Origin: an uncultured Erysipelotrichaceae bacterium
GTDB lineage: Bacteria; Bacillota_I; Bacilli_A; RFN20; CAG-826
DNA length: 64,000 bases
Direction: 5' to 3'
NCBI GenBank assembly: GCA_900314865.1
Contig: OMWW01000004.1
Span: 1,749 to 65,748, forward strand
The translations under genes were made by a program, and so were the position numbers. Below, one piece after another: positions 6,383-59,581 of the stretch. Under the pieces are notes generated by a model. That model saw only the letters and a program-made list of their open reading frames with translations. It was not told the origin of the DNA and did not search any database. Position 1 is the first letter of the stretch; each line of letters starts with the position of its first letter.

Positions 6383-6873
6383 TGTTTTGTTCTCTTACTG
6401 ATTTATATATCAAGCAAAGAGAATTAGATGAAGAAATCGCCGTGAATCACGGCGTTTCTTATTCTTCGACTCGTAACAAAAGAACACTTGCTCTTCTTGT
6501 TGAACTTGGAGAATTCGCTAATGCGACTAGAACCTTTAAATACTGGTCCAATAAAAGTAGTGAATCTAAAGAAAGAGTGCTTGACGAATTTTCGGATGGC
6601 CTACATTTCATTCTCTCTTTAGGAATTGATCAAGGTTATAAAGTTGATTCTATCGAAGTAAATGATGATAAAGATTCTCTTACAGATAATTTACTCAAGA
6701 CCTATGAACTCGTTTCTAAATTTTATAAGGAACAAACTCTTCCTAATTATTTAAAAGCCTTTGAGAGCTATTTAAGAGCGTTATTTAAACTTGGTTTCTC
6801 TTGGGAAGAAGCAAAAGACGCATATTATAAAAAACTCAAAGAAAACCACGTTAGACAAGAAACAAATTATTAA
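6382..6873 (+). CDS. Dimeric dUTPase-like all-alpha NTP pyrophosphatase (dUTPase_2 family)
   Basis: Motifs RNKRTLALLVELGEF..KYW and HFILSL match dimeric dUTPases; start codon overlaps the glgP stop (TAATG). Confidence 0.5.
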   Translation: MFCSLTDLYIKQRELDEEIAVNHGVSYSSTRNKRTLALLVELGEFANATRTFKYWSNKSSESKERVLDEFSDGLHFILSLGIDQGYKVDSIEVNDDKDSLTDNLLKTYELVSKFYKEQTLPNYLKAFESYLRALFKLGFSWEEAKDAYYKKLKENHVRQETNY

Positions 6874-6921
6874 ATACTTAATAAATATTTTATTGCTCTA
6901 ATGTAAGAAAAATAAGAAAAT

Positions 6922-6955
6922 CGGCGATTTCAATTTGTGAAACCGCTATTTTTTT
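6922..6955 (+). terminator. Rho-independent terminator after the glgB-glgP-dut-like operon
   Basis: Hairpin CGGCGATTTCA-atttg-TGAAACCGC followed by TATTTTTTT. Confidence 0.5.
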
Positions 6956-53987: not shown

Positions 53988-55478
53988 ATGAAAAAACAAC
54001 CATTCAATAATCAAAAGTATTTAAAGATTCAAAGAGAGAATATTTTAAAACGTATCTCCAAATTTGGAGATAAGCTTTACCTCGAATTCGGAGGAAAACT
54101 TTTTGATGACTATCACGCTTCTAGAGTGTTGCCTGGATTCATGAGTGATTCCAAATTACAAATGCTTTTGGGTATTAAAAATAAAGTGGAAATGGTGGTT
54201 GTGGTTAATGCGAATGACATTGCTTCAAATAAAGTAAGAAATGATACGCTTATCACTTATCAAGAAGAAGTTGAAAGATTAATTGATACTTATCGAGAAG
54301 TTGGTTTATATGTTTCTAGCGTTGTAATTTCTTTTTATGAAAGTGGGATGGTCGTGGATAACTTCATGAAGAAGTTAGAGAATAACGGATTAAATGTCTA
54401 CCGTCACTACAAGATTAACGGATATCCTCATAATATTCCTTTAATTGTTTCAGAAAACGGATTAGGCAAAAACGAATATATTAAAACTTCAAAACCATTA
54501 GTGGTTGTAACCGCTCCTGGACCAGGAAGTGGAAAGATGGCAACATGTTTAAGCCAGCTCTATCACGATAACCGTAACGGAATTAGAGCGGGATACGCAA
54601 AATATGAAACTTTCCCTGTTTGGAATTTGCCTTTAAATCATCCAGTCAATTTAGCGTATGAAGCCGCAACTGTGGATTTAAACGATGTAAATATGATTGA
54701 TCCATATCACTTAGAAAAATATGGAATTACTACTGTTAACTATAACCGTGATATCGAGGTGTTTCCTCTTTTGAAGAATATCTTCGAAGTAATTTATGGT
54801 GAATCGCCATATTTCTCACCAACTGATATGGGTGTCAATATGGTGGGATTTGCTATTGATGATGAAAAAGGAATCATTGAAGCGTGTAATCGTGAAATTA
54901 TTAGGCGTTATTATCAAACTGAGAAGAATGTCTATTTAGGAAGATTCAAAGATGAATGTATTGATAAGATGGATATCTTATTAAATAAAGCCGGATTATC
55001 ATTATCAAAACGTAAATGTGTTGCGGAATGTCTTAAAGAAGCGGAAATTAGTGGTGAACCAAGTATCACTATTGAGCTTCATAACGGAAAGCTCATTACT
55101 GGTCATAGAAGTGAACTATTTGGCGCAACCGCAGCCGCATTATTGAATGCGATTAAGTATTTAGCGAAGATTGATAAGAACATGTTCTTATTAATGCCAA
55201 TGGTGATTGAACCAATTAAGGAACTCAAAGTTAATTTCTTACATCGTAGTAACGCTAGATTACGTGGTGAAGAAGTTCTCTTAGCTTTATCAATTCAATC
55301 TAAAACCAATCCTCTTGCCGAATTAGCGTTAAAGCAACTTCCAAAATTAATTGCCACAGAAGCGCACTCTTCCACAATTCTATCTGAAGTTGATTTAGGA
55401 ACATTAACTCGTCTTGGCATTAGAGTCACTGAAGAACCTATTTCTTATAAGAAAAAGTTATACACAAACAATCAATAA
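53988..55478 (+). CDS. UPF0371/DUF1846 family conserved protein of unknown function
   Basis: N-terminus YLKIQRENILKRISKFGDKLYLEFGGKLFDD is characteristic of this family; 496 aa; TATAAT 11 nt upstream of the ATG and no SD (leaderless?). Confidence 0.65.
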   Translation: MKKQPFNNQKYLKIQRENILKRISKFGDKLYLEFGGKLFDDYHASRVLPGFMSDSKLQMLLGIKNKVEMVVVVNANDIASNKVRNDTLITYQEEVERLIDTYREVGLYVSSVVISFYESGMVVDNFMKKLENNGLNVYRHYKINGYPHNIPLIVSENGLGKNEYIKTSKPLVVVTAPGPGSGKMATCLSQLYHDNRNGIRAGYAKYETFPVWNLPLNHPVNLAYEAATVDLNDVNMIDPYHLEKYGITTVNYNRDIEVFPLLKNIFEVIYGESPYFSPTDMGVNMVGFAIDDEKGIIEACNREIIRRYYQTEKNVYLGRFKDECIDKMDILLNKAGLSLSKRKCVAECLKEAEISGEPSITIELHNGKLITGHRSELFGATAAALLNAIKYLAKIDKNMFLLMPMVIEPIKELKVNFLHRSNARLRGEEVLLALSIQSKTNPLAELALKQLPKLIATEAHSSTILSEVDLGTLTRLGIRVTEEPISYKKKLYTNNQ

Positions 55479-55510
55479 GTAGACTTAATTATTATTGGGT
55501 CTACTTTTTT
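55479..55510 (+). terminator. Rho-independent terminator
   Basis: GTAGAC-(14 nt)-GTCTAC followed by TTTTTTATT. Confidence 0.55.
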
Positions 55511-55574
55511 ATTGATATTATCCATAAATACTTTGTTTACTTATCAATATATTGATACAATTATTTTAGTATTC

Positions 55575-55660
55575 CAAACGGGGAGTAGCGAATCTATGAT
55601 TCCGTCAACACGATAGTAATATCCGGACCATAGACCGTTAAGGAGCAAGACCTTTGATTT
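55575..55660 (+). promoter_or_regulatory. Candidate yybP-ykoY (Mn2+) riboswitch in the 5' leader of the P-type ATPase gene
   Basis: Contains GGGGAGTAGCG (55580-55590), the most conserved block of the yybP-ykoY motif, plus a downstream GGACCATAG-type block. Flanking AACGG/CCGTT closing helix and internal GAATC/GATTC hairpin. Located 25-110 nt upstream of the start codon. Confidence 0.5.
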
Positions 55661-55683
55661 ACTTTTCCTAAGGAGTTATACGT

Positions 55684-58470
55684 ATGATTGATCAAAAAGA
55701 CATCGCATTTGAGACTGTTAAAGACTCAGATGTTTTATTAGCCCTTGAAAGTGATCCTGAAAAAGGTCTAACTAGTGAAGAAGCAAGCGCGAGACTTGCT
55801 AAATTCGGTCCAAACAAGCTTGAAGAAAAGAAAAAGAAGAGTTGGATAAGAATATTCTTTGAACAGATGGCTAATCCAATGATTTATGTTCTTTTTGGTG
55901 CGGTTGCTATCACTATTGGTGTTTCTATCTACGAAACCATTAAATGTGCGAACGCTGGTTGGATTAATAAAGGGGTTCCAGTTACTAATCCTTTTTTAGA
56001 TGTTGGTGACTGGCCTGATGTCATTATTATTCTTGCGGTTGTTATATTGAATTCTGTTATTGGGACGATTCAAGAAATTAAAGCCCAAACATCATTAGAT
56101 GCATTAAAACAATTATCATCTCCTGAAAGCACAGTTATTAGAGATGGTAAAAGATTTAAGGTTAAATCTAGTGAATTAGTGCTTGGTGATATCGTTGTTC
56201 TTGAAGAAGGAGACACGATTGGTGCGGATTTACGTTTAATTGAATCAGTTAACTTAAAATGTGATGAATCTTCCTTAACTGGTGAATCTGTTCCTGTAGA
56301 AAAAGATTGTTCTATTACTTTCTCTGAAAGCGTCGCTATCGGAGATAGAGTCAATATGGCGTATATGTCCACTCCTGTAAGCTATGGACGTGGTAAGGGC
56401 ATTGTTACTGGTACTGGTATGAAAACCGAGATTGGTAAGATTGCTACTGCCTTAGATACCGAAGAAGAGGAAGAAACTCCGCTTCAAAAAGTTTTATCTA
56501 AATTATCCAAATTCCTAGGATTATTAACATTAGCAATTGTTATTGCGGTTTTAATTGTGGAAGTGATTTGGATTTGCTCTAGAGGACATGCATCTAACGT
56601 TGAAAAATGGATTGATGCTGTTCTTGAATCTATCGCTTTAGCCGTTGCCGCAATTCCTGAAGGACTTGCTGCAGTTGTCACTATTGTTTTATCTATTGGC
56701 GTTCAAAGAATGGTTAAAGTTAATACAATTGTGAAAAAGCTTCCTTCTGTTGAGACTTTAGGCGCTGTTAGCATCGTTTGTTCCGACAAAACTGGCACAT
56801 TAACACAAAATAAGATGACAGTTTTAGAGGCTTATGTTGATGGAAAATACTTTAAAAGAGAAGAATTTAATAAAGATCATGAATGTGAAGATTTAAAACT
56901 TTTAGCAAGAGGCATGTCCCTTTGTAGTAACGCAACTGTGGACGAAGGACTATTTGGAGATCCTACTGAAATTGCTCTTGTAGTCTTTGCGAATGATTTT
57001 GAAATGCATAAAAAAGATTTAGAAAAAGAGACACCTCGTATCGATGAATTGCCTTTTGATTCAGTAAGAAAAATGATGTCCACAAAACATCATCATGAAA
57101 GTGGCGATATTATCTATACGAAAGGGGCTCTTGATTCTATCTTGGCCAATACTTCCTTTATCTTAGATAAAGGCAAAGAACGAAAAATTACTAAAGAAGA
57201 TATTGATAACATCTATAAGGTTAATAGCGAATTTTCTTTCAAAGCATTACGTGTTCTTGCTTTAGCGTATTCTAAAAAAGACAAGATCGATGAATCTGAA
57301 CTAGTGTTTGTTGGTTTAGTCGCAATGATTGATCCTGCTCGACCAGAAGCTAAACCTGCAGTTAAGAAATTTAAAGACGCTGGTATTACTACAATCATGA
57401 TTACTGGTGACCATAAAGACACTGCCTTTGCAATTGCTCATGAGCTCGGTATTGCTGAGAGTATGGATCAATGTGTAATGGGCAAGGAAATCGACAATTT
57501 AAGCGAGGAAGAATTACGTGAATTAGTGAAGAAAACTAGGGTTTTTGCTAGGGTTTCTCCTGAAAATAAGACTCAAATTGTTAAAGCTTTCAAGGCTAAT
57601 GGTCATATATGCGCTATGACGGGTGACGGAGTTAATGACGCTCCAAGTTTGAAGGCCGCAGATATCGGTATTGCAATGGGTATTACTGGCACCGATGTTG
57701 CTAAAGGTGCTGCTGATATGGTTCTAGCTGACGATAACTTTGCGTCCATTGAAAAGGCTGTTGAAGAAGGTCGTGGCATATTCACTAACATCAAGAAAAC
57801 AATCATCTTTCTTCTTTCTAGTAATATTGCTGAAGTCTTAGTTATGTTATTTATCATTTTGATCGGCTTTGAAACTCCTTTTATTGCCATTCACTTGTTA
57901 TGGATTAACTTAATTACTGATTCTCTTCCTGCAATCGCTCTAGGCATGGATCCTAAAGATGATGGAATCATGAAAGGAAAGCCACGCAATCCAGACGACA
58001 CAATCTTTGCTAATGGTGGTTTACGCGATACATTGATGCATGGAGCGTTTATCACAATTGCCGTTATCATCGCTTATTTAAGTGCTTTCTGGCTTAATGG
58101 ATACACAGATTACAATTCTATTGCTCATATTGCAGAAATTGATAAGAAAGTTCTTATTCAAGCACAAACAATGTCATTTACTGCTTTAGGATTTGCTGAA
58201 TTAATCCACATGGTTTGTATGAGTAGTGTTGAGCATTCAGCGTTTAAAGTGTTTAAGAACAAGAATTGGATGATGTTATTGGCATTTGTTCTTGGTGTTG
58301 GTTTACAATTCTTTGTTATTCTTACTCCAGGAGTGCAAAGCATCTTCTCAACCTCATCTTTAAACTACAAAGAATGGCTCATTACAGGTGCAGTTGCCTT
58401 TGTTCCATTACTTGCTCATGAAATTGAGGTTTTAATTAAACACATCGTTAGAAAATCTAAAGCGAAATAG
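55684..58470 (+). CDS. P-type ATPase, Ca2+ (Ca/Mn) transporting, type IIA-like
   Basis: DKTGTLT phosphorylation motif, TGDGVNDAPSL, 10 TM; 928 aa; RBS AAGGAG. Confidence 0.85.
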   Translation: MIDQKDIAFETVKDSDVLLALESDPEKGLTSEEASARLAKFGPNKLEEKKKKSWIRIFFEQMANPMIYVLFGAVAITIGVSIYETIKCANAGWINKGVPVTNPFLDVGDWPDVIIILAVVILNSVIGTIQEIKAQTSLDALKQLSSPESTVIRDGKRFKVKSSELVLGDIVVLEEGDTIGADLRLIESVNLKCDESSLTGESVPVEKDCSITFSESVAIGDRVNMAYMSTPVSYGRGKGIVTGTGMKTEIGKIATALDTEEEEETPLQKVLSKLSKFLGLLTLAIVIAVLIVEVIWICSRGHASNVEKWIDAVLESIALAVAAIPEGLAAVVTIVLSIGVQRMVKVNTIVKKLPSVETLGAVSIVCSDKTGTLTQNKMTVLEAYVDGKYFKREEFNKDHECEDLKLLARGMSLCSNATVDEGLFGDPTEIALVVFANDFEMHKKDLEKETPRIDELPFDSVRKMMSTKHHHESGDIIYTKGALDSILANTSFILDKGKERKITKEDIDNIYKVNSEFSFKALRVLALAYSKKDKIDESELVFVGLVAMIDPARPEAKPAVKKFKDAGITTIMITGDHKDTAFAIAHELGIAESMDQCVMGKEIDNLSEEELRELVKKTRVFARVSPENKTQIVKAFKANGHICAMTGDGVNDAPSLKAADIGIAMGITGTDVAKGAADMVLADDNFASIEKAVEEGRGIFTNIKKTIIFLLSSNIAEVLVMLFIILIGFETPFIAIHLLWINLITDSLPAIALGMDPKDDGIMKGKPRNPDDTIFANGGLRDTLMHGAFITIAVIIAYLSAFWLNGYTDYNSIAHIAEIDKKVLIQAQTMSFTALGFAELIHMVCMSSVEHSAFKVFKNKNWMMLLAFVLGVGLQFFVILTPGVQSIFSTSSLNYKEWLITGAVAFVPLLAHEIEVLIKHIVRKSKAK

Positions 58471-58541: not shown

Positions 58542-58617
58542 GGTCCCTTAGCTCAGCTGGTAGAGCAACTGACTCTTAATCAGTGGGTCAAAGGTTCGAA
58601 TCCTTTAGGGATCACCA
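58542..58617 (+). tRNA. tRNA-Lys (anticodon CTT)
   Basis: Cloverleaf: acceptor GGTCCCT/AGGGATC, D-arm GCTC...GAGC, anticodon stem ACTGA/TCAGT with loop CTCTTAA, T-arm AAAGG-TTCGAAT-CCTTT, genomic CCA. Confidence 0.85.
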
Positions 58618-58630
58618 TCTTGAAAAAAAT

Positions 58631-58656
58631 GAGTCGAATAATTCGACTCTTTTTTA
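58631..58656 (+). terminator. Rho-independent terminator after the tRNA
   Basis: GAGTCGAAT-a-ATTCGACTC followed by TTTTTTAT. Confidence 0.65.
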
Positions 58657-58684
58657 TATTTTTATATTCACGTATTATAAATAT

Positions 58685-59581
58685 ATGAAAATAGGAAAGA
58701 CCGCTCTTAATTTATTAAATTACTTTATTAGAAAAGATATCAAAAAACGTCGTAAGCATTATCCTCCTCATTCTTTTAAAGAATGGATAAACATTCCTTA
58801 TATTGATGATGGAAATCCTTATCACACTTATGATGTCTATTTAGCTAATGAAGAAATTAGAAAAAGAGTGTGCATTATGTATATACATGGTGGTGCTTAT
58901 ATCTTAGGTGAACATCAAGATAATTATCCTTTTGCCTATTATTTATTAAATAAGGGATACGATTTTGTTTCGACTGATTATATTCCTAATGATGGAAATA
59001 GAAGCTCTTTAGAACTTGTTAAAGACGTCGTTAATAATGTTCTCCATGTTTTATCTCGTCTAAAGGAATATGACTTACAAGACGATAAGATAGTATTTGC
59101 TGGTGATTCAGCAGGTGGACATTTCGCTCTCCTTTTAGCGGAACTCTTCAAAAACAAAGAAGCCGCAAAAGAATTAGGGTTTGAACTACCTGAATTAGAT
59201 ATTAAAGCAGTTATATTATGTTGCCCTGTATATAATTTCAAAGATATGGGCAAAGGCATCATGTCTAAAGCAGGATTAAAAAGAATGTTAGGTCCTTCTT
59301 ATAATGATCCAGAGTTATTAATAAAATTAACACCTAGAACATATATTGATTCATTTAATTTGCCTATCTTTGTTTCGACGTGTACACATGATTTTATTAG
59401 ACCAGAGTCACTTCTTATTAATGAAGATTTAAAAGAGAGAAAGAATTATACATTTTTTGATCTCCAATGCGAAGACAAGAAAGTTGATCACGTACATAAC
59501 GTCGTTAAAACAAATTTAAAAGAATCTATCATAGTGAATGATGCAATTGTTGATTTTATTATTAAATATACGAGTAAGTAG
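58685..59581 (+). CDS. Alpha/beta hydrolase fold-3 esterase/lipase (HGG oxyanion motif, GDSAGG nucleophile)
   Basis: MYIHGGAYILGE and FAGDSAGGHFAL. The track ORF begins inside the tRNA; the realistic start is ATG 58685 directly after a TATAAA-type -10. Confidence 0.7.
   Translation: MKIGKTALNLLNYFIRKDIKKRRKHYPPHSFKEWINIPYIDDGNPYHTYDVYLANEEIRKRVCIMYIHGGAYILGEHQDNYPFAYYLLNKGYDFVSTDYIPNDGNRSSLELVKDVVNNVLHVLSRLKEYDLQDDKIVFAGDSAGGHFALLLAELFKNKEAAKELGFELPELDIKAVILCCPVYNFKDMGKGIMSKAGLKRMLGPSYNDPELLIKLTPRTYIDSFNLPIFVSTCTHDFIRPESLLINEDLKERKNYTFFDLQCEDKKVDHVHNVVKTNLKESIIVNDAIVDFIIKYTSK

Follow-up and report, generated by a model that had tools for sequence, protein, structure and literature searches.

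Does the leader of a P-type ATPase gene in an uncultured lineage of Bacilli contain a yybP-ykoY (Mn2+-type) riboswitch, as a first-pass annotation had proposed, and which parts of the aptamer does it keep? We analyzed a stretch of 64,000 nucleotides (the window; all features described lie on its + strand, except for one palindrome) and examined the leader in the interval from the terminator of the upstream gene to the ATPase ATG at 55684. A terminator scan placed this intrinsic terminator, a 13-pair stem followed by a T run, at 55477-55506. It ends the upstream gene (53988-55478), and the ATPase leader is thus its own transcription unit. A promoter can be read from the sequence at 55533-55561, with a -35 element TTGTTT (55533-55538), a spacer of 17 nt, and an extended -10 element TGATACAAT (55553-55561). 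A TTGTTG...TGATACAAT layout is found at equal distance from the aptamer in the related loci L001, L003, L005, L006, L008-L010, L068, and L074. With this conserved promoter, the transcript would start near 55568 and should therefore include the entire aptamer.

The gene at 55684-58470 encodes a type IIA P-type ATPase of 928 amino acids. It scores 666.7 bits with the PMR1-type and 585 bits with the SERCA-type NCBIfam model, both below the equivalog cut-offs, and the closest solved structures are those of Listeria LMCA1 (634 bits), followed by human SPCA1. By homology, the protein is a LMCA1/SPCA/SERCA-like pump for which Ca2+, and possibly Mn2+, are the putative substrates. Type II P-type ATPases are efflux pumps. 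The streptococcal precedent invoked for this locus fits: the downstream gene is a type IIA pump, the class controlled by the Mn-activated S. pneumoniae mgtA riboswitch, whose target is an efflux ATPase for Ca2+/Mn2+ of the PII type (Martin et al. 2019, PMC6649816). A tRNA gene (58542-58614) follows about 70 nt past the ATPase stop codon, an arrangement shared with loci L001, L004, L007, and L017. An open reading frame at 58583-59581 overlaps this tRNA gene, and its real start thus probably lies further downstream.

The block on which the riboswitch had been proposed, GGGGAGTAGCG, is indeed present at 55580-55590. Taken alone it proves nothing, because about one 10-mer of this type is expected by chance in a stretch of this length when one mismatch is allowed (0.99 matches expected per window; at least one match in 60 of 100 shuffles). 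A second block, GGACCATAG, is also present (55625-55633) but is not conserved in the family; it represents the 3' strand of helix P3.1, which covaries with its partner. The strands of a suggested closing helix, AACGG (55577-55581) and CCGTT (55635-55639), both exist, but the helix is paired no better than in shuffles (71.4% versus 71.5%) and is mutually exclusive with the helices that do covary. We thus discarded it. The significant parts had not been listed: they are AGCAAGACC and CGUCAACAC, together with their conservation across 54 homologous leaders.

A scan of species-representative genomes yielded 80 loci with ATPase homologs of 45-89% protein identity, mostly rumen and gut MAGs labelled Bacilli, Erysipelotrichaceae, or Mollicutes, with uncultured rumen and gut Bacilli MAGs as the closest relatives. 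Many of these loci share GGGGAGTAG and CAAGACC, spaced by about 65-75 nt, immediately upstream of the ATPase gene. We wrote a structure consisting of P1.1, the L1-closing pair, P3.1, CCG/CGG, and P3.2 on an alignment of the window's own subgroup (alignment A2), in which 93.5% of the cells are paired, compared with 24-43% for slid partners. Both sides change in 13 of the 22 pairs. We used this alignment to build a covariance model and searched the window and the 80 loci (647 kb) with it. The model has one match in the window (55571-55661, 99 bits) and matches 53 of the 80 relatives, always directly upstream of the ATPase and on the ATPase strand, with no other match in the 647 kb. This subgroup model does not match E. 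coli mntP. In a 54-sequence alignment, itself fitted to the covariance model, 89.7% of the cells are paired, versus 63% in shuffles and 25-42% in slid controls, and 20 of the 22 pairs show compensatory changes on both sides. RNAalifold, run on a plain MAFFT alignment, independently finds P3.1, CCG/CGG, P3.2, the L1-closing pair, and a CC/GG stub. It chooses another register for P1.1, but a G-C to C-G covariation in the wider set favors the canonical one. Several contigs that carry a Bacilli-type ATPase with its leader are labelled Phocaeicola dorei, Gemmiger formicilis, Coriobacteriaceae, Slackia, and Gammaproteobacteria (L029, L041, L045, L054, and L047, respectively); these contigs have probably been mis-binned in the MAG collections.

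The aptamer starts with the 5' strand of P1.1 (55575-55581), in which C55575-A55578 pair with U55653-G55656 and G55580-G55581 with C55652-C55651, while C55579 is bulged. The pair between the first G of GGGG and the last base of GAC[C] is GC in 39, CG in 12, and AU in 2 sequences of the 54-sequence alignment. All four outer pairs change on both sides there, with just 68% of cells paired because register and bulge differ among leaders (GUAA[A]GG/CCUUAC in L017, UAG[C]GG/CCG[A]CUA in L004). Next comes the 5' strand of the L1 loop, GGAGUAG (55582-55588), part of the block GGGGAGUAG (55580-55588), which is identical to that of E. coli mntP. It is conserved in 37 aligned leaders (alignment A1), where GGGA.UAG is invariant, the first base of the block varies, and one base is nearly invariant. 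C55589 pairs with G55645 and closes L1 as a 1-bp P1.2 (CG 38, UA 12, UG 3 in the 54-sequence alignment), and a 3-nt linker, GAA, takes the place of P2 (55589-55592 with C55589). The 5' strand of P3.1 (55593-55604) is composed of UCUAUG (55593-55598), an internal loop AUU, and CCG (55602-55604); its 3' strand (55624-55634) comprises CGG, an internal loop AC, and CAUAGA. In the 54-sequence alignment, all seven outer P3.1 pairs change on both sides, with 91% of cells paired, and the CCG/CGG segment is paired in 100% of cells. Enclosed by P3.1 are the 7-nt bulge L3, UCAACAC (55605-55611, inside CGUCAACAC, 55603-55611), and the hairpin P3.2 (55612-55623; GAUA, loop GUAA, UAUC), whose five pairs all change on both sides, with 93% of cells paired.

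The positions expected to contact the metal are invariant. The C and A of L3 show no variation in alignment A1, and our alignment places C55606 and A55607 at the positions of L. lactis C40 and A41, L3 residues with a metal-contacting role (PMC6649816). The receptor pair beside L3, C55603-G55625, which would accept a cross-helix A-minor contact, is C-G in 53 of 53 leaders. Downstream of P3.1, a vestigial P4 (55635-55644, CCGUUAAGGA as a whole) pairs CC (55635-55636) with GG (55642-55643) under a GUUAA cap and is followed by A55644. G55645 and the 3' strand of L1, CAAGA with its family-invariant AGA, occupy 55645-55650. The sequence CAAGACC (55646-55652) lies within AGCAAGACC (55644-55652), and its C, A, G, A, and C do not vary in alignment A1. 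GGGGAGUAGCG and AGCAAGACC match what we take to be the L. lactis aptamer sequence. The invariance of AGA in this strand has been described (PMC6649816), and the L3 C-A, the L1 AGA, and the C-G receptor pair have been tied to metal binding and leg docking (PMC6649816, PMC12153347). CCUUUG (55651-55656), the 3' strand of P1.1, pairs with 55575-55581, resembles an anti-Shine-Dalgarno sequence, and would represent the switch strand. Piece by piece, the window aptamer is collinear with E. coli mntP, in which P2 and P4 are full hairpins.

Rfam does not recognize this element. At gathering thresholds, Rfam 15 returned no RF00080 match in the whole window, only a tRNA and a ribosomal protein L10 leader (RF00557, 16449-16539; 46.5 bits with a gathering score of 44), and a permissive scan of 55440-55760 gave no RF00080 match even at E≤10. 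As a control, RF00080 gave the validated E. coli mntP aptamer (L081, 3462-3558) 41.6 bits, short of its own gathering score (45), and it missed 34 of 34 further loci as well, comprising 16 homologous ATPase loci and 18 metagenomic loci with the same signature. Since the same model misses the mntP control and these 34 related or similar loci, its negative result carries little weight, and we set Rfam aside as a deciding test. The RF00080 model seems poorly suited to detecting the Mn riboswitch family. Its printed consensus lacks the 3' strand of L1/P1.1 and has a long, odd insertion in P4.

How far is the aptamer reduced? Among the 54 leaders, the 5' linker measures 3-4 nt in 52 (3 nt in the window), and no P2 hairpin is thus possible. 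The 3' linker has 9-13 nt in 50 of the 54 (10 nt in the window). The 10-nt linkers follow the pattern N1 N2 [G N N N A] N2' N1' plus 1 nt. Across 17 distinct linkers of this length, positions 1 and 9 pair in 100% and positions 2 and 8 in 88%, the stub pairs alternate between CC/GG, GA/UU, CA/UG, and GA/UC, and 15 of the 17 have a G...A loop; longer 3' linkers form stems of 3-6 bp. With just two pairs and few independent changes, support for the P4 stub is modest. It nevertheless led us to soften a reading of the element as a junction-less, unbranched hairpin, and a P2-less aptamer with a vestigial P4 of at most 2 bp is the fair description of the sequence. The four-way junction, for which covariation support had been expected, is therefore absent, with P2 missing and P4 not exceeding 2 bp.

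This absence, like the lacking RF00080 match, had been named by the first-pass annotation as an outcome that would count against its proposal. Formally, both outcomes are what we found, but neither test is sound, because RF00080 fails on mntP and three-way forms of the Mn riboswitch are already accepted in the literature (PMC6649816, PMC12153347). P2 and P4 are regarded as dispensable (PMC6649816), and a four-way junction is typical of the class rather than obligatory. We found no description of P2 and P4 being reduced together in the literature searched, a search that was incomplete and does not prove that none exists.

We compared the window aptamer to characterized members of the class. The mgtA riboswitch of S. 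pneumoniae represents a three-way form in which P4 is replaced by an invariant UNAAA, and it uses a terminator platform (PMC6649816). The window leader shares with it the gene class, the L1 and L3 core, the C-G receptor pair, and the departure from the four-way junction. It differs from mgtA in lacking P2, which mgtA keeps, and in keeping a 2-bp P4 stub, with CCGUUAAGGA found where mgtA has UNAAA. Whereas mgtA uses an intrinsic terminator, the window leader has none, and 13 nt separate the end of its aptamer from the Shine-Dalgarno sequence. In E. coli alx, a P2-less three-way junction carries a long P4, in which a termination site lies, and a UCAUUAC-type L3, a form described as restricted to Enterobacterales and coupled to pH (PMC12153347). 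Like alx, the window leader lacks P2 and would control the translation of a metal exporter; unlike alx, it has a far shorter, putative 2-bp P4, the L3 sequence UCAACAC, and a host from a Bacilli lineage. With the canonical aptamers (L. lactis yoaB, X. oryzae, E. coli mntP) it has in common the order of elements, the P1.1 switch helix, and the 7-nt L3, but two of the four helices are missing or vestigial, its length is about 82 rather than about 100-110 nt, and it has no RF00080 score. Among the ATPase relatives, L050 and L052 are mgtA-like, both with a P2 hairpin and L052 with UUAAA in place of P4. Terminator-type platforms occur in the same ATPase family (L049, L051, L052, and L078), as does a small P4-like hairpin (L069 and L078). 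These mixed leaders (L049-L052, L069, and L078) indicate that one gene family spans several architectures.

A spacing-limited signature pattern searched in metagenomes gave at least 120 matches. Among the matches listed are 80 metagenome loci (L082-L161), 23 of which precede ATPase homologs and 47 other genes; ORF calling in these contigs was crude, and individual gene assignments may be wrong. Ten non-ATPase genes among the matches listed encode TerC (five), GDT1, a Na/Ca exchanger, an M48 peptidase (HtpX-like), a carbonic anhydrase-UPF0114 fusion, and a CitMHS transporter. TerC and GDT1 (UPF0016) belong to the known regulon of the yybP-ykoY class. The occurrence of the signature upstream of these genes among the matches listed suggests that it marks this riboswitch class, and we count it in favor of our assignment. 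The Na/Ca exchanger, M48 peptidase, carbonic anhydrase-UPF0114, and CitMHS genes, as assigned by the crude ORF calling, are unusual partners. None of the ten non-ATPase loci (0/10) reached the RF00080 threshold. Again among the matches listed, non-ATPase leaders mostly keep a real P4 hairpin, whereas ATPase leaders have short linkers; P2-less forms thus appear to be common, and it is the doubly reduced form that tracks the ATPase. Soil, sediment, and sludge metagenomes frequently contain Mn-type aptamers that lack P2 and have a normal P4 (matches listed). The contig of L133, which bears a reduced aptamer and an ATPase, also contains a COG3943 RNA (RF02941, 88.6 bits) at 6832-6935.

We next consider how metal binding could be coupled to expression. 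The expression platform (55657-55683) contains a pyrimidine tract, CUUUUCCU (55662-55669), and the Shine-Dalgarno sequence AAGGAG (55670-55675), which lies 8 nt from the ATG. A terminator scan between the aptamer and the ATPase start codon found none, the terminator of the upstream gene being the only one detected. With no terminator and a Shine-Dalgarno sequence that starts 13 nt past P1.1, the arrangement points to translational control. In sister leaders, an open aptamer leaves the 3' strand of P1.1 to pair with the Shine-Dalgarno region, through a sequestering helix CCUUUGAGAAAA/UUUUUUCGGAGG in L011 and CCUUUG/CGAAGG in L003, L008, and L010. Imposing the aptamer lifts the modelled Shine-Dalgarno accessibility from 0.0-0.2 to 0.63-0.87 in L011, L013-L017, L071, and L074. 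In the subgroup, complementarity to the ribosome-binding site is greater for the switch strand than for its own shuffles (mean z -1.86), although the pooled p-value is inflated because the sequences are related.

The window's own platform behaves less clearly. We modelled it in short and long windows, with strands forced or blocked and with explicit state energies. Its switch strand pairs with the Shine-Dalgarno sequence through CCUU/AAGG only, no better than shuffles (-3.3 versus -3.0 kcal/mol, z -0.2), and imposing the aptamer gives no rise in modelled accessibility (0.24, versus 0.33 with the P1.1 5' strand blocked). Longer folding windows likewise give no clear switch. The aptamer with its P4 stub has an energy of -7.9 kcal/mol, the switch strand paired with the Shine-Dalgarno sequence -9.4 kcal/mol, and the hinge AGGAGCAAG paired with CUUUUCCU, which leaves the Shine-Dalgarno sequence free, -11.8 kcal/mol. 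This last helix is the lowest-energy alternative and could even imply the opposite regulatory sign. All states lie within about 4 kcal/mol, and the modelling thus does not settle the sign for the window leader. AAGGAG occurs twice, in the aptamer hinge (55640-55645) and as the Shine-Dalgarno sequence, with the complementary tract CUUUUCCU located between the two. The hinge copy could be a decoy for the tract, an arrangement restricted to the four closest relatives. We also considered an H-type pseudoknot in which CCUU from the hinge-helix loop would pair with AAGG in the Shine-Dalgarno sequence and rejected it on geometric reasoning, since no linker would remain between the stem strands.

Conservation, covariation, and gene context support the original proposal of a yybP-ykoY/Mn2+-type riboswitch upstream of a Ca/Mn-type P-type ATPase, and we consider it highly probable that a genuine Mn-type aptamer controls this gene. 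That it is the reduced aptamer at 55575-55656, acting in the ATPase leader as a translational ON switch, is likely. In this mechanism, one leg would be formed by the L1 internal loop, with GGGGAGUAG opposite AGCAAGACC and closed by P1.1, and the other by the P3 arm with its 7-nt L3 bulge. By analogy with solved aptamers, L1 and L3 would be bridged by Mn2+, and perhaps also by Ca2+, which would hold the two legs locked in a side-by-side arrangement and stabilize P1.1. The locked 3' strand CCUUUG, or the neighboring pyrimidines, would then be kept off the ribosome-binding site, and translation of the pump would rise when metal is in excess. Metal binding and metal identity are assigned to the window leader by this analogy, and we infer the ON direction from its orthologs and from the biology of efflux pumps.

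The same fold could be tuned to Ca2+, or to several divalent ions, in this lineage and serve as a Ca2+ sensor for a Ca2+ pump. In favor of this are the nearest solved homolog of the pump, which is a Ca2+-ATPase (Listeria LMCA1), and the heavy remodelling of the junction region. Strict Mn specificity is also found in no member of the class, and in vitro the mgtA aptamer of S. pneumoniae binds Mn2+ less tightly than Ca2+ (PMC6649816). The homologous switch in S. pneumoniae and B. subtilis, however, responds in vivo to Mn2+ and not to Ca2+ (PMC6649816), and the Mn-site nucleotides including the L3 adenine are unchanged in the window, which makes a Ca2+-tuned sensor rather improbable. Different reasoning applies to the sign of regulation. 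If the hinge AAGGAG (55640-55645) captured CUUUUCCU in the absence of metal, the Shine-Dalgarno sequence would be free, and with metal the tract would pair with it and translation would fall. The stability of the hinge:tract helix speaks for such a decoy, as does a local ACUUUU/AGGAGU hairpin that forms only in the modelled aptamer state, in line with the slightly lower Shine-Dalgarno accessibility when the aptamer is imposed. That hairpin, however, contributes just about 1.3 kcal/mol, the tract:hinge pairing is confined to four close relatives, and a clear ON logic is seen in orthologous leaders (about 82% protein identity). Repression by excess metal would also make little sense for an efflux pump, and of all the readings weighed here we regard this inverted switch as the least probable.

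A perfect palindrome of 16 bp, TATCAAT and ATTGATA around a central AT (TATCAATATATTGATA, 55542-55557, no strand assigned), overlaps the promoter spacer and the -10 element of the ATPase gene. It occurs as a single exact copy in the window and is kept in many relatives as TATCAATWWATTGATA; a search for further copies in the window found none above chance expectation. The palindrome looks like a candidate operator for a DNA-binding protein, possibly a repressor, in which case the ATPase would be under dual control by protein and RNA. Carried further, the leader might have ceased to switch, or might act in stability or protein binding, with the real control exerted by a repressor at this conserved site overlapping the -10 element; the failure to find a convincing alternative pairing for the window platform would agree with this. 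The exact metal-site nucleotides are invariant over 54 leaders while the helices covary, however, which is unexpected for a mere stability element, and sister leaders have functional-looking platforms, some of the terminator type. We thus consider a non-switching leader very unlikely and retain the reduced Mn-type ON switch as the best explanation.

As a regulator it is of an ordinary kind, here in a new host lineage and with a minimal architecture, and does not amount to a new mechanism. It does not constitute a new kind of system, because the class, its link to PII-type Ca2+/Mn2+ ATPases, and departures from the four-way junction have already been published. One may go further and regard the window leader and about 50 relatives as a distinct minimal Mn2+ riboswitch subclass of about 82 nt, with P2 deleted and P4 reduced to two bp under a G-N-N-N-A loop, possibly shifted to Ca2+ sensing. 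We think this doubtful; if true, such a subclass would show that L1-L3 docking needs almost no helical junction. An aptamer of about 82 nt with almost no junction would, in any case, be a convenient natural example for asking how much of the four-way scaffold metal-dependent docking requires. The current Rfam model misses the window element, its relatives, and many P2-less metagenomic aptamers, and metal regulation in uncultured gut and rumen Bacilli is thus under-annotated. Our findings suggest that in these bacteria a Ca2+/Mn2+ efflux pump is linked to a metal-sensing RNA, possibly in combination with a repressor acting at the promoter.
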